Shown piece after piece: positions 2,176 to 59,378 of a stretch of 64,000 nucleotides of DNA; position 1 is the first letter of the stretch, and each line of letters starts with the position of its first letter. The stretch is from Thermoanaerobaculales bacterium. GTDB taxonomy: Bacteria; Acidobacteriota; Thermoanaerobaculia; Thermoanaerobaculales; Sulfomarinibacteraceae. The position numbers were made by a program, and so were the translations under genes. The stretch lies in NCBI GenBank assembly GCA_035358815.1, contig DAOPQC010000001.1:22100-86099 (forward strand). Reading direction: 5' to 3'. The notes under the pieces are model-generated. The model did not search any database. It was not told the origin of the DNA and was given only the letters and a program-made list of their open reading frames with translations.

Positions 2176-3309
2176 TTATGCCCTGGCCGTTGCTTCCGCG
2201 ACGACCCGCGCGAGCACCGCATCCCACGCCTCGACGACCGGCTCCCAGCGCAGGGACGGGGCGCGGGCCGCGGCGCGCCGCCGCAGCTCGGCGGTGACCT
2301 CGGGCTCGAGCGCCCGGCCGATCGCCGCCGCCAGCGCCGCCGGGTCGCCCGGCGGCGTGAACAGCGCGGCGTCGCCTGCGGCCTCGCGCAGCGCCGGGAT
2401 GTCGGAGGCGACCGCCGGCGTGGAGCACGAGATCGCCTCGGCGAGCGGCAGGCCGAAGCCCTCGACCTCGGAGGCGAGCACGAAGGCCTCGGCGTGGCGC
2501 AGCAGCTCGCGCGCCTGCTCGCGGCTGACGTAGCCGGGAAGGTGGATGTGGCGCCGCGCGGGTGAGCTCTCGATGGCGGCCATGATCGGAGCGACGCCCC
2601 AGCCGGGCGCGCCGGCGATGACGAGCTCCGGCGGGTCGGAGAGCCGGCCGCGCAGCTGCTCATACGCGCGCACCAGGGTGCCGATGCCCTTGCGGGGCTC
2701 GAGCGTTCCCAAATGGAGGAGGTAGCGCAGTCCGCTCGCGAACCTCTCGCGGGCCGCCGAGCCGTCGTCGCCGCCGGCGGGCGGCGAGAAGGTCGCGTCG
2801 ACGCCGTACGAGATGTGTGCGAGCTTCGATCGCACGAACGGCAGGTGCTCGAGCAGCGCGGCCTCGGTGGCGGCCGAGCCGGCGACCACGACCGCGGCGC
2901 GCTCCAACGACTCCTCGAGGTAGGCGTTGAAGCAGAAGCGGTTGGCCAGGGTGTGGCGGTGGGGGTGGGTGCGGGGCGTGATGTCGTGGACCATCGCGAC
3001 CGCCGGCACCGGGCAACGCCGCGGGACCACCGCGAGGGAGGCGATGAACACGTCGGCGCCGCTGCGGGCGAGCTCGCGCGGCAGCAGGGTGTGGAGCCAG
3101 AGCGTGCCGGGAATCGGCGGCCGCGGCGGGGGCAGCTGCCGGACCCCGGCTGTGCGGAGCTCCTCCGGCAGCTCGAACGCCCGCGACGCGGCCAGGCTGA
3201 CGGTCCGTCCCTGGCGCCGCGCCAGGCCCGCGGCGACCTCGGTCAGCCAGGTGGCGACCCCGGTGCGGCGGCCGACCAGGGAGCGGGCGTCACACGCGAT
3301 ATTCATCAT
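2176..3309 (-). CDS. Glycosyltransferase family 1 (GT4-like)
   Basis: I chose the internal ATG pair at 3309/3306 (MMNIACDARSL...) of ORF 2176..3588. The GT1 motif 'EVEGFGLPLAEAISCSTPAVASDIPALRE' is present. The gene overlaps the upstream GT gene by 20 nt, which suggests an operon. Confidence 0.8.
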   Translation of the reverse strand: MMNIACDARSLVGRRTGVATWLTEVAAGLARRQGRTVSLAASRAFELPEELRTAGVRQLPPPRPPIPGTLWLHTLLPRELARSGADVFIASLAVVPRRCPVPAVAMVHDITPRTHPHRHTLANRFCFNAYLEESLERAAVVVAGSAATEAALLEHLPFVRSKLAHISYGVDATFSPPAGGDDGSAARERFASGLRYLLHLGTLEPRKGIGTLVRAYEQLRGRLSDPPELVIAGAPGWGVAPIMAAIESSPARRHIHLPGYVSREQARELLRHAEAFVLASEVEGFGLPLAEAISCSTPAVASDIPALREAAGDAALFTPPGDPAALAAAIGRALEPEVTAELRRRAAARAPSLRWEPVVEAWDAVLARVVAEATARA

Positions 3310-4609
3310 CGGCTCCGCTGTCGCGGCCTCCCGCCTGGAGAAGAGCCGCGCTGGTGGCAGCGGCCGCGCGGTTCCACGAGAACTTCGCGGCGCGCTCGCG
3401 GCCGAGCCGGACCAGGCGCTCACGCAGCTCGGGATCGCCGAGCAGCGAGGCGATTCCCGCTGCGATGTCGCGGGGGCTCGCCGGGTCGACGTAGACCGCG
3501 GCCGGTCCGGCGACCTCGGCCATCGCCGAGCAGCCCGAGGTGACCACCGGCGTGCCGCAGGCCATGGCCTCGAGCAGCGGCAGGCCAAAGCCCTCGATCC
3601 ACGACGGGAAGAGCAGCGCGTCGGCGCCCCGGTAGAGGCCGGGCAGCTCGCCGCGCTCGACGTAGTCGAGGTGCAGGATGCGGTCGCGCACCGGCGAGGA
3701 GTCGAGGGCGCGGCGGATCGCCTCGGTGCGCCACCCCCAGCGGCCGACCAGCACGAGGTGGCCGGCGTAGCCCGCCTGGGCGGCGAGCTCGAAGGCCCCG
3801 AGCACGCCCTCGACGTTCTTGCGCGGCTCCAGCGTGGACACGAACAGCAGGTAGCGAGCCGGCAGCTCGGGACCGGCGCCGGCAGCCTGATGCTCGCGGG
3901 CGAACGCAGGGTCGAGGCCCTCGTGGATGGTGTGGATCCGGCGCCGGTTTGCCGAGAGCCGGCTCGCGAGCTCGCCGGCGGTGGCCTCGGACACCGCGAT
4001 CAGCCGGTCGGCGCGGAACAGGGTCGCCGGGAGGTGGGCGTGGAGCAGGCGCAGCGTGTCCGGGGCCACCGTCTCCGGCATCGCCGCGAAGGCGAGGTCG
4101 TGGACCGTGGCGACTATGGCGCGGCCGAACGGCAGCTGGCGGGCGGGCATGAAGAAGTTGGGCGCCCACAGCACGTCGTTGCTGTCGAGCACCCGCAGCA
4201 CCGGCTCGACGAGGAAGCGCAGCGCGGCGAGCGTCGGCCCGACCGGCAGCAGCAGGTCGGGAGGCAGGTGGTGGGCGCGCAGGCGCAGGTTGCGGCGTCC
4301 CGGCGTCGCCGGCGCCGGCGGGTCGCCGGGCGCCAGGAAGGTGTGGGCGTAGAGGTTGAAGACGAGACTGTCGTCGCGGCGGTCGAGGGCCTCGAGCAGA
4401 TTCCACTCGTACCAGCCGACCCCGGTCAGGCGCTCGGTGAAGGGGAAGACGTCGACCCCGACCACGAGCTCGCCACCGCCCTCGGCGAGCCGGCGGTGGA
4501 AGCGCTGCCAGCGCGTCCGGAAGGTCCCGGCGAGGTCGCGAGCCACATGTCCGAAGAAGCGCAGTGTCGAGCGCAGCGAGCGCGACATGGCGAGGACATG
4601 GTAGCGCAC
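3290..4609 (-). CDS. Glycosyltransferase family 1 (GT4-like)
   Basis: 440-codon ORF with motif 'PSWIEGFGLPLLEAMACGTPVVTSGCSAMAEV'. The start could instead be the ATG at 4588. Confidence 0.8.
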   Translation of the reverse strand: MRYHVLAMSRSLRSTLRFFGHVARDLAGTFRTRWQRFHRRLAEGGGELVVGVDVFPFTERLTGVGWYEWNLLEALDRRDDSLVFNLYAHTFLAPGDPPAPATPGRRNLRLRAHHLPPDLLLPVGPTLAALRFLVEPVLRVLDSNDVLWAPNFFMPARQLPFGRAIVATVHDLAFAAMPETVAPDTLRLLHAHLPATLFRADRLIAVSEATAGELASRLSANRRRIHTIHEGLDPAFAREHQAAGAGPELPARYLLFVSTLEPRKNVEGVLGAFELAAQAGYAGHLVLVGRWGWRTEAIRRALDSSPVRDRILHLDYVERGELPGLYRGADALLFPSWIEGFGLPLLEAMACGTPVVTSGCSAMAEVAGPAAVYVDPASPRDIAAGIASLLGDPELRERLVRLGRERAAKFSWNRAAAATSAALLQAGGRDSGADDEYRV

Positions 4610-4639: not shown

Positions 4640-4930
4640 CCCGCTTGCGCGTGCGAAGGAGATCGCTGCGTCGGGGCGCGGGCGCGGAAGCGGGAGGGGA
4701 AGTGCGGAGTTCGGTGCCTGGCACCATTGTGCCCGGGAGTGGAAGAGCGGAGTTCGGTGCCTGGCACCATTGTGTGTGCTTCCGCCTCCGAGCCTGGATG
4801 AAGACTCCGAGGTCGTGTCGAATATCCGGGCGCCGGAGTTGATCGAGACATTTCGGGAGCGGGAACGGGAGCGGGAACGGGTGGGGGCTATCCCCCAAGC
4901 CCCAGCCCCTATCCCCTGGAAGGGAGGGCG
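4640..4930. repeat. Composite intergenic repeat block
   Basis: (GCGGGC/GCGGAA) run at 4676-4700. Two copies of GCGGAGTTCGGTGCCTGGCACCATTGTG (4704-4731 and 4747-4774). G3-tract hexamers at 4855-4887. Confidence 0.85.
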
Positions 4931-4945
4931 GCGTACCATTCCGTC

Positions 4946-5791
4946 ATGAGCGAGATCGTCCTCGAGCGGAGAGAAGGCCCGGTCCTGGTGCTCACCCTGA
5001 ACGATCCGGAGCGGGCCAACCCGCTGTCGGCGGCACTCGCCGATCGCCTGTACCGCGCCCTGGCGGAAGCGGCCGAAGACGCGACGGTGCGTGCGGTCGT
5101 GTTGACCGGAGCCGGCCGGCACTTCTCGGCCGGCGCCGACCTCGCGGCTCTCGAGCGGCTCGCCGAGGGCGGCACCGAGGCCGACAACCGGGAGGACTCG
5201 GAGCGGCTGGAGCGGCTCTACGCCGAGCTGCTCGACCACCCCAAGCTGACCGTGGCGGCGGTCCACGGCGCGGCGATCGGCGGCGGTTGCGGCCTGGCGA
5301 CGGCCTGCGACCTGGTGATCGCCGAACGGAGCGCGCGCTTCGGCTACACCGAGCTCACGATCGGTTTCATCCCGGCGCTGGTGTCGACCTTCCTGACCCG
5401 CCGGGTCCCAGGTCACGTGGCCCGCCGGCTGCTGCTCGACCCCGGGCTGGTGGACGGCGAGCGGGCCGTCGCGCTGGGGCTGGCGGACGAGCTGGTCGAC
5501 GACGGCGCAGCGATCGAGGCCGCGATCGAGCGCGCGCGGTCGATCGCGCACCGCAGTTCGGGTGCTGCCCTCGCCGCCACCAAGAGGCTGCTCAACCTGA
5601 CCGTCGGCATGGGCTGGCGGGACGCTCTCATGGCGGCGTCGCGGGCCAACGTCCAGCAGCGACGGCACCCGGACTGCCGGCACGGCGTGCGCACCTTCCT
5701 CGCCACCAAGTCGACGCCGGACTGGCTCGCGGAGGGGGGCGAGAAGGCGGAGTCGGTGCCGAAGGACGAGGATCTGGGATCTGGGGAATAG
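4946..5791 (+). CDS. Enoyl-CoA hydratase/isomerase (crotonase) family protein
   Basis: Crotonase motifs 'VVLTGAGRHFSAGADL' and 'AAVHGAAIGGGCGLATACD'. Confidence 0.85.
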   Translation: MSEIVLERREGPVLVLTLNDPERANPLSAALADRLYRALAEAAEDATVRAVVLTGAGRHFSAGADLAALERLAEGGTEADNREDSERLERLYAELLDHPKLTVAAVHGAAIGGGCGLATACDLVIAERSARFGYTELTIGFIPALVSTFLTRRVPGHVARRLLLDPGLVDGERAVALGLADELVDDGAAIEAAIERARSIAHRSSGAALAATKRLLNLTVGMGWRDALMAASRANVQQRRHPDCRHGVRTFLATKSTPDWLAEGGEKAESVPKDEDLGSGE

Positions 5792-6125
5792 GGTCCAGCC
5801 CCACCGGCCCGCTCGTGTCACGGCGTCGTGCAGAGCACGAAGCCGGATCCGTTCCCGTTCCCGAGACGACCCGCCCGCTTCCGCTTCCGCGGGCAGCCAG
5901 GATGGCTACCCCACAACGCCCGGGTGTCGTTCCCGTCCCCGTTCCCGTTCCCGCTCCCGTCCCCGTCTCTCACAGGAAACGGTGCCAGGCACCGAACTCC
6001 GCACCTCCGCTTCGGCCTCCGAAATGGTGCCAGGCACCGAACTCCGCACCTCCGCTTCGGCTTCCGGATCCGCTCCCGTTCCCGGGCGCGTCTCTTCTTG
6101 GAGCGGTCTCATGGTGTGGAGGTCA
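5792..6125. repeat. Composite intergenic repeat block, roughly the reverse complement of 4640-4930
   Basis: GATC heptamers at 5768-5785. TGTCACGGCGT box at 5816-5877. (CGTTCC/CGTCCC)n at 5928-5968. Two copies of GGTGCCAGGCACCGAACTCCGCACCTCCGCTTCGG (5981-6015 and 6026-6060). Confidence 0.85.
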
Positions 6126-6132
6126 AGTAACC

Positions 6133-6221
6133 GGACCGCGGAGGGCGCCGAGAACGCGGAGAAGGATCAACCGATTGTGCGCCCTGGCCTCAGCGCTCTC
6201 GGCGCTCTCAGCGGTTCACGT
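6133..6221 (-). repeat. ~90-nt hairpin-forming repeat element (GTGAACCGC...GCGGTTC type), copy 1
   Basis: Its reverse complement aligns along its length with 50297-50388 and 53482-53572. The termini GTGAACCGCTGAGAGCGC and GGCGCCCTCCGCGGT(T)C are inverted. Confidence 0.8.
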
Positions 6222-6320
6222 GGGGTGGGAGTGCGAGACGACCCGCGCCTGCCTCCGAGATCGTTCCCGAAGCGCCAGTCTGCTTGATGCCGCGATGCGG
6301 CGAGCATACAATCCGCCGCC

Positions 6321-6974
6321 ATGGCCGGCCGACCAGCACGTCCGCGTCGCGGCGAGGAGATCGCCAGCGCCGTCACCCACGGCCTCGGCGCCGCCGCGTC
6401 GGTCGCCGGCTTGGCCGTGCTCGTCGTGGCCGCGGCGGGGCGAGGCGACGCGTGGCACGTTGTGAGCGTCAGCGTCTTCGGTGCGACGCTGGTCCTGCTC
6501 TACGCCGCGTCCACCCTCTACCACGGCCTCCCGCTCGGCCGGGCCAAGGCGGTCTTCCGGGTGCTCGATCACAGCGCGATCTACCTGCTCATTGCCGGCA
6601 CCTACACCCCGTTCGCCCTGGTCAGCCTGCGCGGTCCGTGGGGCTGGTCCCTGTTCGGCGTGATCTGGGGCTGTGCGGTGGCCGGGATCGTGCTCAGGAC
6701 GACGTTCGGTGTGCGCTGGCGGGTCGCGCTGGTCGTCCTCTACGTGGCGATGGGTTGGGCGGGGGTTGTCGCGGTCAGGCCGATGATCGCCGCGATGCCC
6801 GCCCCCGGCATTGCCCTGGTGGCGATGGGGGGCCTGGCCTACACCTCGGGAATCGCGTTCTACGGCTGGCGCCGGCTGCCGTACCACCACGCGGTGTGGC
6901 ACCTGTTCGTGCTCGCGGGCAGCGCGCTCCACTTCCTCGCAGTGCTGCTCTACGTCGTCCCGCGAGGTACGTGA
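6321..6974 (+). CDS. Hemolysin III / PAQR family membrane protein
   Basis: Seven predicted TM segments. Family motifs 'EEIASAVTHGLG', 'YAASTLYH' and 'DHSAIYLLIAGTYTPF', plus the C-terminal 'HHAVWHLFVLAGSALHF'. Confidence 0.85.
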   Translation: MAGRPARPRRGEEIASAVTHGLGAAASVAGLAVLVVAAAGRGDAWHVVSVSVFGATLVLLYAASTLYHGLPLGRAKAVFRVLDHSAIYLLIAGTYTPFALVSLRGPWGWSLFGVIWGCAVAGIVLRTTFGVRWRVALVVLYVAMGWAGVVAVRPMIAAMPAPGIALVAMGGLAYTSGIAFYGWRRLPYHHAVWHLFVLAGSALHFLAVLLYVVPRGT

Positions 6975-7772: not shown

Positions 7773-8195
7773 ATGGACGGCTATCCCTTCTCGTGCCCGA
7801 TCCAGGTCCGCTGGCGGGACGTCGACGCCCTCGGCCACGTCAACAACGCGGTGATCGTGACCTTCCTGGAGACCGCGCGGGCCGAGCTGTGGCGGGAGCG
7901 GTTCGGCGGCGGCACGGCGATCCCGTTCATGGTCGCCCGCCTCGAGGTCGACTACCGCCGGCAGATCTCGCTCGACGACCCGGTGCGGGTCGGCATCAAG
8001 GTCAGCGGCCTGCGCGGGGCCCGCTACAGCTTCGAGTACCGGGTCGAGGCGGGCGGCGAGCTGGCGGCCGAGGCGGTGACGGTGATGGCCCACGTCCGGG
8101 CCGGCGAGCGCCGGCCGTCGCGCATCCCCGACGAGCTGCGCGCCCGCCTCGCAGCCCTCGAGGAAGCTGCCAGCCCCCTGATCCCTGACCCCTGA
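7773..8195 (+). CDS. Acyl-CoA thioesterase, 4HBT/YbgC (hot-dog fold) family
   Basis: N-terminal 'VRWRDVDALGHVNNAVIVTFLETAR', typical of YbgC-like thioesterases. Confidence 0.85.
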   Translation: MDGYPFSCPIQVRWRDVDALGHVNNAVIVTFLETARAELWRERFGGGTAIPFMVARLEVDYRRQISLDDPVRVGIKVSGLRGARYSFEYRVEAGGELAAEAVTVMAHVRAGERRPSRIPDELRARLAALEEAASPLIPDP

Positions 8196-8214
8196 CCGCT
8201 GACCCCCGTCACCC

Positions 8215-23584: not shown

Positions 23585-23720
23585 GCTCACCCCCGTGCCC
23601 GTCTCCGTGCCCGTCTCCGTTTCCGGTCGGGGGGTGCCCGCCGGGAGCGTCCATTCGGGAACGGGAACGGGAACGGGATCGGGAACGGGTGGGCCTCGAA
23701 CCCCTGACCTCCAACCCCTC
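23585..23720. repeat. C-rich/G-rich inverted hexamer arms
   Basis: 'CCCCGTGCCCGTCTCCGTGCCCGTCTCCGTTTCC' (23590-23623) faces 'GGGAACGGGAACGGGAACGGGATCGGGAACGGGTGGG' (23657-23693). Confidence 0.8.
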
Positions 23721-24780: not shown

Positions 24781-24884
24781 CGGGACCTCCTCGGCGAACA
24801 CGGTAGCGCGGAATCGTGGCGGGGCGAAGGCGGCGGCGGGGCAGGGCAACCGCGCGACCGCCGGGACTGGGGTTGGCGGGAGAC

Positions 24885-25100
24885 GTATCACGTATCACCT
24901 ATCACCTCCTCGGGGACGGGAACGGGAACGGGAACGGGTGCGGGCACGGATCCGGCGTCGCCTTCGCATACCCCTTCACAATTGCGGGCGCGGGCGGGCA
25001 CGGAGACGGGCACGGGGCGGGCGGTATCACCTATCACGTATCAGTTCGTCGGGCGCGGAAGCGGAAGCGCGCGCGGAAGCGGGCGACCCGGCCCCGCCAC
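24885..25100. repeat. Heptamer-bounded G-rich repeat block in the ddl / DUF1343 divergent region
   Basis: GTATCAC-GTATCAC-CTATCAC (24885-24906) and GTATCAC-CTATCAC-GTATCAG (25024-25044) bracket the G3-tract arrays at 24912-24949 and 24985-25025. (GCGGAA)n follows at 25050-25085. Confidence 0.8.
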
Positions 25101-35319: not shown

Positions 35320-35500
35320 CGCCCGTTCCCGTACCCGTTCCCGCTTCCGCTTCCGCGCCCGCTTCCGAGGAAGTGACCGGTGAGAGGTGATACGGCCCCC
35401 CCAGCCCGTGCCCCTGCTCGTCACGCCGGAGCCGAAGGCCGCGCCGGATTCCCGCCTGTCACGGCGTAGCCGAAGGCGAAGCCGGATTCCCGACCGGCGA
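35320..35500. repeat. Composite intergenic repeat block
   Basis: 'CCCGTTCCCGTACCCGTTCCCGCTTCCGCTTCCGCGCCCGCTTCC' (35322-35372). Two TCACG(C/G)CG(G/T)AGCCGAAGGC..GCCGGATTCCCG boxes follow (35425-35495). Confidence 0.75.
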
Positions 35501-50256: not shown

Positions 50257-50296
50257 GATGGGGGACGGCCACGGAGGCGGACCGTCCTCCCGCCCG

Positions 50297-50388
50297 ACGT
50301 GAACCGCTGAGCGCGCAGAGAGCGCTGAGACCAGGGCCGCGCACTTCCAATGACCCTTCACCGCGTTCTCGGCGCCCTCCGCGGTTCG
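50297..50388 (+). repeat. ~90-nt hairpin-forming repeat element, copy 2
   Basis: 'ACGTGAACCGCTGAGCGCGCAGAGAGCGCTGAGACCAGGG...CACCGCGTTCTCGGCGCCCTCCGCGGTTCG'. Confidence 0.8.
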
Positions 50389-50446
50389 ATCGCTCCGCCC
50401 CTACGTGATGAAACCGTGCCACGAAGAAGAGAGCCCGGGCACGGAG

Positions 50447-50825
50447 GCGGGCGCGGAAGCGGGCGCGGAAGCGGGCGGGGGAGCAAGTCCACAACGGTGG
50501 CAGGTACCGCCATTGCGGTCATGATCAGTGGCGGAGCCAACCGAGCTTCACGGCAGGGCGGGAACGGGAACGGGAACGGGAACGGCTGGAGCCCCTATCC
50601 CCCAGATCCAAGATCCTCGTCGGAAGCGGGCGCGGAAGCGGGCGCGGAAGCGGGCGAGGGAGCAAGTCCACAACGGTGGCAGGTACCGCCATTGCGGTCA
50701 TGATCAGTGGCGGAGCCAACCGAGCTTCACGGCAGGGCGGGAACGGGAACGGGAACGGGAACGGCTGGAGCCCCTATCCCCCAGATCCAAGATCCTCGTC
50801 GGAAGCGGGCGCGGAAGCGGGCGAG
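50447..50825. repeat. Tandem direct repeat, 179-bp unit x ~2.1
   Basis: 'GAGCAAGTCC...' starts at 50481 and again at 50660. The units are near-identical and each contains (GCGGAAGCGGGC)n, GGTGGCAGGTACCGCCATTGCGG, (GGGAAC)4 and CAGATCCAAGATCC. Confidence 0.9.
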
Positions 50826-51898: not shown

Positions 51899-51939
51899 CG
51901 CCCGCGGGACGCGCACCCCTCGTGCTCGCCTGGCCTCCC

Positions 51940-52185
51940 GGGATCGGGAACGGGGACGGGAACGGGGACGGGAACGGGGACGGGAACGGGAGCGGGAACG
52001 AGGTACGGTACGGGCGGGGCGCTCTATTCCCGAGATCTCAGATCCCAGATCCTGGTCGGACGCGGAAGCGGATCCGACTTCCGGCTTCGCTCGAAGCTTC
52101 GCCGGGACGAGTCGCCTCCGGCTTCGCCGTGACAGGAGCGGGAGGGGGGCCTACCCCCTAGATCCTAGATCCTAGATCCTGCCCG
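51940..52185. repeat. Longest G3-tract hexamer array plus GATC heptamers
   Basis: 11 G3-4 tracts (GGGATCGGGAACGGGGACGGGAAC...) at 51940-52000. GATCTCA-GATCCCA-GATCCTG at 52033-52053. (TAGATCC)3 at 52157-52178. The reverse of the GTCACGGCG box lies at 52108-52125. Confidence 0.85.
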
Positions 52186-53394: not shown

Positions 53395-53481
53395 CAGCGC
53401 TCTCCGTGCGTCCGGAGTCTACACCTCGGGTGACGGACTTCGGGGCTTGGAGCTTGGGGTTCGGGACACCGCCAGCTCGGC

Positions 53482-53572
53482 GTGAACCGCCGAGAGCGCT
53501 GAGAGCGCAGAGGAGTCGCGAGGAAACGGTGAGACGACCTTACTCCGCGTTTTTGGCGCCCCCCGCGGTTCA
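53482..53572 (+). repeat. ~90-nt hairpin-forming repeat element, copy 3 (most divergent)
   Basis: 'GTGAACCGCCGAGAGCGCTGAGAGCGCAGAGG...CTCCGCGTTTTTGGCGCCCCCCGCGGTTCA'. Confidence 0.7.
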
Positions 53573-53722
53573 ATTCCAACGCGCCCACCCCCCGAGGCCT
53601 CACCACGACGACGCCTGAACGCCACGGGTGGGGAAGGGGAGGTGCACCGACGGACGTGGAGCGGTCAACCTGACTCGGGAACGGGAACGGGGACGGGAAC
53701 GGGCAGCGACACTCGACCGTGG

Positions 53723-57687: not shown

Positions 57688-57731
57688 CCTCCGTTCCCGT
57701 TCCCGTTCCCGTTCCCGTTCCCGAACTCCCC
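57688..57731. repeat. (GTTCCC)5 array in the purL/purM divergent promoter region
   Basis: 'CCCTCCGTTCCCGTTCCCGTTCCCGTTCCCGTTCCCGAACTCCCC'. Confidence 0.85.
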
Positions 57732-59028: not shown

Positions 59029-59077
59029 GTGGTCGGCGTTCTGCCGGAACATCAACCACCGTGCCTGGCACCATTAC
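59029..59077 (+). repeat. Left copy of the direct repeat flanking the hicA/hicB-HEPN cassette
   Basis: GTGGTCGGCG..CCGGAACATCAACCACC-GTGCCTGGCACCA. The core CCGGAACATCAACCACC at 59044-59060 recurs at 60544-60560. Confidence 0.75.
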
Positions 59078-59138
59078 TGGCACCATTACAGAAGAAAACG
59101 AAAGACTTGGTGGTCATGGTCTTGACATTCGGACAAAA

Positions 59139-59378
59139 ATGTCCGAGATTGTTGATGTGACCGGGGCGGAGTTCATCAAGAAGGTCAAGAAGCTGGGGCG
59201 GCGACGTGGAGTGTCGGTCGAGTTCATCGTCGAGCGAGGGAAAGGCAGCCACGGAACCCTCTACTTCGGCGGCCGTTTCACGGTCGTCAAGCACAGAGCT
59301 GCCGAGCTGACGCCGGGACTGCTCCACGCGATGCTGAAGCAGCTCGGCCTGGCGCTCGATGACCTCCGCGGTGAGTAG
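59139..59378 (+). CDS. hicA: HicA-family mRNA interferase toxin
   Basis: The ATG at 59139 lies inside ORF 59061..59378. 'GKGSHGTLYFGGRFTVVKHRAAELTPGLLHAMLKQLGL' is typical of HicA (YcfA-like). Confidence 0.8.
   Translation: MSEIVDVTGAEFIKKVKKLGRRRGVSVEFIVERGKGSHGTLYFGGRFTVVKHRAAELTPGLLHAMLKQLGLALDDLRGE

Follow-up and report, generated by a model that had tools for sequence, protein, structure and literature searches.

The question raised by this locus is why a single gene should stand inside a mirror-image frame of palindromes. The gene, which encodes a 281-aa enoyl-CoA hydratase/isomerase, or crotonase (4946..5791, plus strand; Pfam ECH_1, E = 4e-46), lies in a 64,000-nt stretch of DNA from a Thermoanaerobaculales bacterium – contig DAOPQC010000001.1 of assembly GCA_035358815.1, positions 22,100 to 86,099, hereafter the window. 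It is flanked by a GT4 glycosyltransferase gene upstream (3290-4609, minus strand) and an HlyIII gene downstream (6321-6974, plus strand), and both spacers that separate it from these neighbours carry paired copies of the same short palindrome, in opposite orientations. We consider it highly likely that these palindromes belong to a dispersed repeat of the Thermoanaerobaculales/Holophagae, resembling repetitive extragenic palindromes (REPs) and of the terminal inverted repeat (TIR) type, whose cognate Y1/HUH transposase is encoded on another contig of the same metagenome-assembled genome (MAG). The bracket is a by-product of colonisation by this repeat, not a mobile or regulatory cassette, and the crotonase gene is a bystander.

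The symmetry itself is not a matter of chance. Around the crotonase gene, GCGGAGTTCGGTGCCTGGCACC occurs in four exact copies, two per side and in mirror orientation, against a chance expectation of 0.01; the same expectation applies to the exact palindrome GGTGCCWGGCACC, likewise found four times in the 64 kb (100 shuffles), and to a 22-mer of the repeat, also present four times in the window. The upstream spacer contains GCGGAGTTCGGTGCCTGGCACCATTGTG at 4704-4731 and 4747-4774 on the plus strand, and the downstream spacer its reverse complement, GGTGCCAGGCACCGAACTCCGC, at 5981-6002 and 6026-6047. Delimited as repeat units, the upstream copies are U1 (4703..4731, plus), with a tGCGGAGTTC arm, a GGTGCCTGGCACC core and an ATTGTG tail, and U2 (4746..4774, plus), which form the first and second units of a 43-nt tandem doublet at 4691-4774; the downstream copies are D1 (5975..6003, minus), within a 45-nt tandem doublet at 5976-6066, and D2 (6022..6048, minus), again a 45-nt unit. 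A degenerate remnant of the repeat (59060..59089, plus) reads CGTGCCTGGCACCATTA: its right half-site is duplicated (CTGGCACCATTA twice), it is devoid of the GCGGAGTTC arm, and it has the exact 15-mer GTGCCTGGCACCATT in common with the copies at 4714 and 4757. This remnant sits at the edge of a lower-GC stretch with a hicA-like gene (59060-59300).

Much of this had been noticed in a first-pass annotation of the same DNA, which reported the four mirrored palindromes, a degenerate fifth copy at 59061 (seen here at 59060-59072, one mismatch from the palindrome) and G3 and C3 hexamers on the two sides of the gene, all of which prove real. The hexamer tracts lie at 4854..4883, where the plus strand reads (CGGGAG/CGGGAA)n, and at 5928..5966, where the G-rich strand is the minus strand and the sequence is an inverted match of 4854-4881. 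The starts given there for the palindrome copies hold, whereas the ends at 6015 and 6060 take in spacer sequence. The description of ~300-bp inverted repeat blocks was too generous, because the two spacers, compared in inverted orientation, align over only ~100 nt (4674-4771 against 5978-6077) at ~82% identity, plus a further 28 nt within the G-rich hexamer tracts. The alignment nonetheless scores 105, against 22 ± 2.6 for shuffles, and the ~100-nt stretch corresponds to two tandem 43- or 45-nt units with one palindrome per unit, as delimited by Tandem Repeats Finder.

Beyond the window, scans of public collections found a 19/20-mer of the repeat in 38 metagenome stretches – many of them from the same anaerobic-digester samples as the window's contig – and in the Holophagae MAG FeB_10; the compared contig stretches are labelled L001-L076. 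A few matches fell inside genes of unrelated taxa, in about the number expected by chance. In high-GC Acidobacteriota contigs, the copies are intergenic, standing singly or in head-to-tail arrays of 2-4 with periods of 34-74 nt, and the flanks of dispersed copies are unrelated to one another. The repeat is carried by at least 25 independent loci in spacers of contigs from these populations; the window holds one locus plus one remnant. Conservation is confined to ~29 nt, from about -7 to +21 around the core (tgcGGAGTTC-GGTGCCTGGCACC-g.tt.c), and the consensus that best explains the unit, tGCGGAGTTC-GGTGCCWGGCACC-(G)WTT, is likewise ~29 nt long with a perfect 13-nt palindrome as its core, and is thus a short imperfect palindrome in the 20-40-nt range by which REPs are defined. 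This conservation is asymmetric, the left arm being fixed and the right arm loose, and left or right halves of the repeat are sometimes duplicated alone, of which the remnant at 59060-59089 is another case. The genes beside the copies share no function: they encode secreted proteins, a sugar-phosphate isomerase-like protein, a peptide transporter, a cytochrome c peroxidase, a nuclease and an HNH-like protein. Locally, as differences between strains show, the copies multiply by tandem duplication of 43-45-nt repeat-plus-spacer units.

Some other identities were considered for the repeat and rejected. A CRISPR-like array does not fit spacers that are, within an array, near-identical tandem duplications; a MITE, or miniature inverted-repeat transposable element, with a long body does not fit conservation that ends at ~29 nt; and a sigma-54 promoter, suggested by the TGGCAC in the core, was discarded as no copy has a conserved -12 TTGC at the right spacing. 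A literature search for the repeat sequence itself returned nothing relevant, and Rfam gave zero RNA family matches in the window.

What ties the repeat to a known kind of element is a gene elsewhere in the same populations. A 972-nt open reading frame (ORF) at L036:5567-6538 (minus strand), found at the same locus in L029 and L054-L063, encodes a 323-aa protein and is flanked by two copies on each side in inverted orientation – at 5476 and 5530 (both minus) on one side and at 6571 and 6645 (both plus) on the other – with their GCGGAGTTC arms facing the gene. This layout is present in ten assemblies, and the inverted arms, 31-38 nt long and a few to ~60 nt from the ORF ends, constitute a bracket of terminal inverted repeats. 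The protein passes the Pfam Y1_Tnp cutoff (31.1 bits against 23), its only NCBIfam match is the REP_Tyr_transpos RAYT model NF047646 (E = 8e-19), and many of its more than 1000 homologues bear the JGI label "REP element-mobilizing transposase RayT". Structural matches required a family profile: phmmer with the single 323-aa sequence had zero matches in the Protein Data Bank (PDB), and a profile of 33 sequences matches PDB 4ER8 (E. coli TnpAREP) with E = 4.6e-7, the alignment taking in the HUH, WQxRF and YxxxNP motifs. The C-terminal third of the profile matches three DnaA domain IV structures weakly (E = 0.22-0.34), and two homologues have precomputed PF08299 matches. The motifs NHYH59, WQGRF98 and YVHLNP119, at positions invariant or nearly so in the 33 homologues, agree with the signature NH[YF]H, W[EQ], Y[IV]HLNP given for TnpAREP subclass 2.1 in Table 1 of PMC6006769, where the subclass (= RAYT group 1) is equated with the "TIRYTs" of Di Nocera et al. 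In all likelihood, then, the protein is a transposase of RAYT group 1 / TnpAREP subclass 2.1 / TIRYT, with a possible DnaA-like helix-turn-helix (HTH) at its C-terminus, its activity being predicted from these matches.

The strongest evidence that this protein and the repeat form a cognate pair is the conservation of the pairing itself. Homologues at 64% (L073) and 52% (L074, L075) identity have the same inverted-flank geometry and keep the GGTGCCWGGCACC core, while their gene-proximal arms differ, so the repeat is tied to a Y1/HUH gene in three divergent lineages. By exact-sequence look-up, the crotonase (HQL29743.1 / HOC41384.1) and the transposase (HQL29934.1 / HOC43398.1) belong to the same Thermoanaerobaculales MAGs, and the two loci co-occur in several samples; within the window, there is no Y1-transposase homologue of this family. 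In L075 (427-1443; sample ERZ25039514), the 52%-identical transposase has a further copy beside an IS110-family transposase gene, a hint that the family includes members present more than once per genome.

Among described systems, the closest are the TIRtrons, with their TIRYT transposases (Di Nocera et al. 2013, PMC3733652), equivalent to subclass 2.1 of Quentin et al. (2018, PMC6006769) and to RAYT group 1 of Bertels et al. (2017, PMC5581495). Shared with them are a long Y1 transposase (323 aa here), a putative C-terminal HTH similar to Bac_DnaA_C (a weak match here), the motifs NH[YF]H, WQ and Y[IV]HLNP, a gene tightly flanked by inverted repeats, and repeats that are probably moderately abundant, dispersed, single or clustered, and partly self-complementary; an Acidobacteria-specific TIRYT group has in fact already been described (PMC3733652). 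The GGGGWSAS motif of many, not all, TIRtrons has zero matches on either strand of L054:2700-4100. The present system differs in its host, an uncultured Thermoanaerobaculales lineage, and in a 13-nt palindromic core kept down to 52% identity, a feature previously unreported. With the IS200/IS605 family it has in common the HUH/Y1 catalytic core (Pfam Y1_Tnp) and ends recognised as small hairpins, yet its tyrosine motif is YxxxNP (class 2) and not YxxxQ, TnpB is absent, the flanking hairpins are inverted and not on one strand, and the repeats are dispersed without the gene. Its features are those of a system of the REPtron/TIRtron type, in which a putative Y1 transposase gene with the subclass 2.1 signature is bracketed by a dispersed palindromic repeat.

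Compared with the classical REP/RAYT systems of E. coli and Pseudomonas, including their bacterial interspersed mosaic elements (BIMEs) and REP doublets (REPINs), the family shows both likenesses and differences. Shared with these systems (PMC2817692, PMC3116915, PMC3479197) is a short GC-rich extragenic palindrome with a conserved unpaired arm; further likenesses to classical REPs and REPtrons are a mosaic with other intergenic motifs, a strain-variable copy number and, as found here, a cognate HUH Y1 gene bracketed by inverted copies. Several of the differences count against the REP-like reading. The GTAG (GT[AG]G) head is absent, as is GTGG, the positions before the arm reading (R)TGC, ATAC or CGAC. 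Inverted doublets of the REPIN/BIME kind are also absent: in each of the 16 true adjacent pairs (no more than 150 nt apart), the copies stand head-to-tail, in keeping with clusters that are tandem duplications and not alternating or inverted doublets. Copies per genome probably number dozens rather than the hundreds of classical REPs, and the enzyme is twice the length of E. coli TnpAREP. Most copies have stems of only 5-6 bp, and folding is weak for those in the window (hairpins of -5.6 to -6.9 kcal/mol, with z between -1.2 and -1.7) but better for copies elsewhere whose right arm is fuller (z = -4.7). The same side of the balance holds the NF047646 score, which at 68 bits stays below the curated RAYT cutoff of 80, and the listing of subclass 2.1 as having no REP (PMC6006769). 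It also holds the position of the copies: wherever this can be resolved, a copy has the start of a gene no more than ~300 nt away, and none sits clearly between convergent genes, so that there is room for a secondary regulatory role.

The listing of subclass 2.1 without REPs also gives the family its modest novelty. Published surveys of this transposase class (subclass 2.1 / group 1) report terminal inverted repeats without any REPs, and it is possible – and more likely than the notion of invertible genes taken up below – that the GGTGCCWGGCACC-core repeats are unrecognised cognate REPs of these RAYTs, with a core conserved over deep divergence. A hairpin core maintained in this way, in a RAYT class reported without REPs, is modestly new, and the 13-nt core kept to 52% identity offers a concrete substrate for biochemistry (repeat oligonucleotide tGCGGAGTTCGGTGCCTGGCACCGATTTCC). 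A REP-like family documented together with its cognate Y1 transposase in uncultured Thermoanaerobaculales has, otherwise, modest specialist value.

At the crotonase locus, the comparison of relatives shows repeats that vary around a stationary gene. The order GT4-GT4 / crotonase / HlyIII / phosphopantetheinyl transferase (PPTase) / thioesterase is conserved in relatives down to 79% protein identity: 96% in L069/70, 90% in L071/72 and FeB_10 (L076), 81% in L064 and 79% in L065. The repeat copies, on the other hand, number 2+2 in the window strain and L019, 2+1 in the sister strains L069/L070, where only one copy stands downstream, and zero in L064, L065, L066-68, L071/72 and FeB_10, even though FeB_10 has the family elsewhere in its genome. 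Repeats at this locus are thus limited to the window's species-level lineage, and within it the tandem units turn over between strains, L069, L070 and L042 being without one 45-nt downstream unit, either D1 or D2. Through module insertion, the downstream spacer has reached 530 nt in the window, compared with 85 nt in L071/72. Since the gene is syntenic in relatives while copy number varies (2+2, 2+1, 0+0), the 4.6-6.1 kb bracket is not a mobile unit, and the crotonase gene is ancestral at its site. Nor is the bracket a copy of the transposase layout, because the repeat arms point away from the crotonase gene and towards the transposase gene.

This comparison bears directly on the first-pass annotation, which saw in the locus a composite element or a gene framed by one long stem, and proposed to look for the 4.6-6.1 kb segment as a unit present or absent in related genomes. 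No such unit emerges: the gene is always there, the repeats vary independently of it, and the outcome that the annotation itself named as fatal to its proposal – an ancestral crotonase gene with independently acquired flanks – is the one found. In L042 (2364-5836), the DNA upstream of the crotonase gene matches no other compared sequence, and similarity to the window starts exactly at the hexamer tract (4854). As this contig may be a chimera joined at the tract, or a rearrangement, it was not used as proof of a separable upstream block, and the argument on separability rests on L069/L070, L071/72 and L076.

One lineage does depart from the conserved orientation. In L066, L067 and L068 – three independent contigs from three samples, at 92% protein and 88% DNA identity – the crotonase gene, and nothing else, is inverted with respect to its two flanks (L066:1588-3019). 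Both endpoints fall within this same pair of spacers, each at the edge of a small module that faces the gene, and the two modules are built as inverted versions of one another: the one towards GT4 consists of GGGGCTATCCCCC plus C-rich 7-mers and the one towards HlyIII of (GGATCTG)n plus GGGGRATAGGGG, with only about 9-12 nt of sequence in common. The endpoint pair in L066 was read by eye, and the top five results of an automatic repeat finder did not include so short a pair. In the window, the corresponding modules are module U (4883..4919, plus), which consists of GGGGGCTATCCCCC followed by C-rich 7-mers and whose gene-proximal edge marks the GT4-side endpoint, and its inverted partner, module D (5770..5793, plus), which consists of (GGATCTG)2 followed by GGGGAATAGGG and overlaps the last crotonase codons and the stop. 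The window's orientation is ancestral, since the more distant L064 and L065 have it too. Recombination between the inverted modules may have produced the inversion, but the shared sequence is only ~9-12 nt and L066-68 has no REP copies. The inverted-repeat frame of the first-pass annotation retains some merit here, in that L066-68 inverts exactly the crotonase gene between the same two spacers, so that the repeats framing the gene in inverted orientation may have had structural effects; its mobile or long-stem reading is not supported. The inversion is fixed in the L066-68 lineage and is not switching within the window's species, all of whose contigs have one orientation; both orientations were never seen in one population. 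The window has no Y1-transposase homologue, and serine or tyrosine invertases were not searched for. That inverted repeat or mosaic blocks, together with an HUH transposase or with hairpin-induced recombination, might make single genes invertible, with L066-68 as a fixed product, is a speculation to which we give very little weight.

How the mirror image arose can be sketched by analogy with E. coli TnpAREP and the IS200/IS605 enzymes (PMC3479197, PMC6006769). On single-stranded DNA, the enzyme would recognise a small GC hairpin together with the arm beside it, and would cleave and rejoin at this site, seeding copies into intergenic DNA. At the crotonase locus, a single subfamily of the repeat, with a hexamer-like left arm, probably entered both spacers in opposite orientations, and the mirror image is completed by the hexamer and 7-mer mosaic modules that occupy most of the genome's spacers.

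The competing explanations start from the same symmetry. One of them would make the palindrome an operator or upstream activating site of a dimeric – possibly global – regulator that controls the crotonase gene and its neighbours, and the perfect 6+1+6 palindrome of the core is indeed what such a protein might bind. The proximity of gene starts and the lack of copies clearly between convergent genes speak for it as well, as does the fact that positions upstream of orthologous genes are kept in FeB_10 and the digester species despite differing spacers (L001 vs L012); the putative DnaA-like HTH of the cognate transposase might itself bind double-stranded DNA. Yet more than 20 nt are identical across loci, unlike in degenerate operators, the left arm is fixed where the right is loose, half-sites are duplicated on their own, the neighbouring genes have no common function, and the spacing to a sigma-54 -12 element is absent. 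Copies vary by strain and are absent from the locus in close relatives, FeB_10 included, and the repeat brackets a transposase gene in three divergent lineages. On this balance, control by a regulator seems quite improbable. The dimeric protein-binding site of the first-pass annotation thus survives in altered form: the palindrome is very probably a recognition element for a protein, but one of the Y1/HUH transposase in preference to a dimeric regulator, because the neighbours are unrelated, the half-sites are duplicated separately and copy number varies by strain. A milder functional proposal is that the repeats, whatever their origin, have been co-opted as hairpin terminators or insulators that protect the crotonase gene, on both sides, against read-through. 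A consensus scan flags two copies as weakly terminator-like, with a stem and a T-rich tail and oriented against transcription entering the gene, and E. coli REPs have reported roles in 3'UTRs (PMC3479197; bioRxiv 10.64898/2026.03.23.713779). The stems, however, are of 5-6 bp and the tails T-poor, and the copies on the upstream side occupy a divergent promoter region that offers no transcript to end; we regard this as unlikely, and in any case as a secondary function and not an alternative origin.

Hardest to sustain is the proposal of a composite cassette, mobile or invertible, made up of the 4.6-6.1 kb segment, with inverted blocks as its ends and the crotonase gene moved or flipped by a transposase or recombinase. 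It accounts for the inverted repeat clusters on both sides of the gene, and the inversion in L066-68, with endpoints in the same two spacers, might be taken as the cassette in action. That lineage, though, has no REP copies, and its endpoints are at other modules (CTATCCCCC plus 7-mers) sharing ~9-12 nt; all relatives have the crotonase gene in this position, whether repeats are present or not; mixed orientations within one population were never seen; the arms are oriented opposite to those around the transposase gene; and the window is without a transposase or recombinase homologue of this family. The probability that we attach to such a cassette is accordingly minimal. The REP-like family with its cognate transposase accounts for the pattern as ordinary repeat biology, striking as it looks, and this guards against misreading the locus as a regulon or a gene cassette.

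The hexamer tracts, another component of the frame, are not specific to the crotonase locus: the window has 30 arrays of at least three CGGNNN units, almost all in spacers, and they form a microsatellite-like intergenic class found genome-wide. These G-rich hexamers (CGGGAA, CGGAAG, CGGGCG) fill most intergenic spacers, for example at 2130-2171, 23656-23691, 24911-24952, 35320-35367, 50436-50477, 51939-51998 and 57688-57723; the more distant relative L065 lacks them in its homologous spacers, and many match the quadruplex pattern G3N3G3N3G3N3G3 as a sequence pattern. They resemble the GGGNATC repeats of Xanthomonas and Nostoc (PMC4692102) as G-tract repeats over-represented in spacers, often of ~4 units and near gene ends, but the window's (CGGGAA)n and (GGGATCT)n differ in unit and host, and the quadruplex likeness is one of sequence pattern only. 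Tandem 7-mers (GATCTAG, GGATCTG, CCCCTGA, TATCACC) stand beside short G5-CTAT-C5 modules at gene ends, at 1819-1844, 4883-4919, 5770-5793, 8175-8206, 24883-24905, 25025-25043, 52028-52052 and 52157-52180. A dispersed module with a small hairpin, GTCACGGCGTMGTGCAGAGCACGAAGCCGGATCC, occurs at 1865-1898, 5817-5850, 35420-35492 and 52070-52135; its copy downstream of the crotonase gene (5817..5850, plus), which reads GTCACGGCGTCGTGCAGAGCACGAAGCCGGATCC like that at 1865-1898, is absent from L069/L070 and has changed the crotonase C-terminus relative to them.

A second repeat family is a ~95-nt long-hairpin element, GTGAACCGCTGAGAGCGC...CGCGTTCTCGGCGCCCTCCGCGGTTC, found at 6128-6222 (reverse complement), 50292-50392 and 53476-53576 and also at L006:1358; its DNA fold has -26 to -28 kcal/mol, with z about -3 for two of the three copies, and it is REPIN- or MITE-like. 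At 50442-50823, a 179-bp unit is repeated 2.1 times at 99% identity, each unit being a full mosaic of hexamers, the palindrome-like ACGGTGGCAGGTACCGCCATTG, hexamers again, a CTATCCCCC module and 7-mers. The spacers of this genome are unusually crowded with hexamer, heptamer and hairpin modules, and the L066-68 inversion in a neighbouring lineage falls exactly between such modules, a setting that could serve for studying repeat-driven micro-rearrangements.

A -10-like TACCAT lies at 4934-4939, upstream of the crotonase ATG, and such hexamers (TACCAT, TACAAT) precede the start codons of the crotonase, HlyIII and GT4 genes by 6-9 nt and are conserved at the homologous sites of the relatives L064-L072, a spacing that suggests leaderless mRNAs for all three genes; ahead of the HlyIII gene, the hexamer belongs to a TTGATG-17-TACAAT arrangement (6284-6312).

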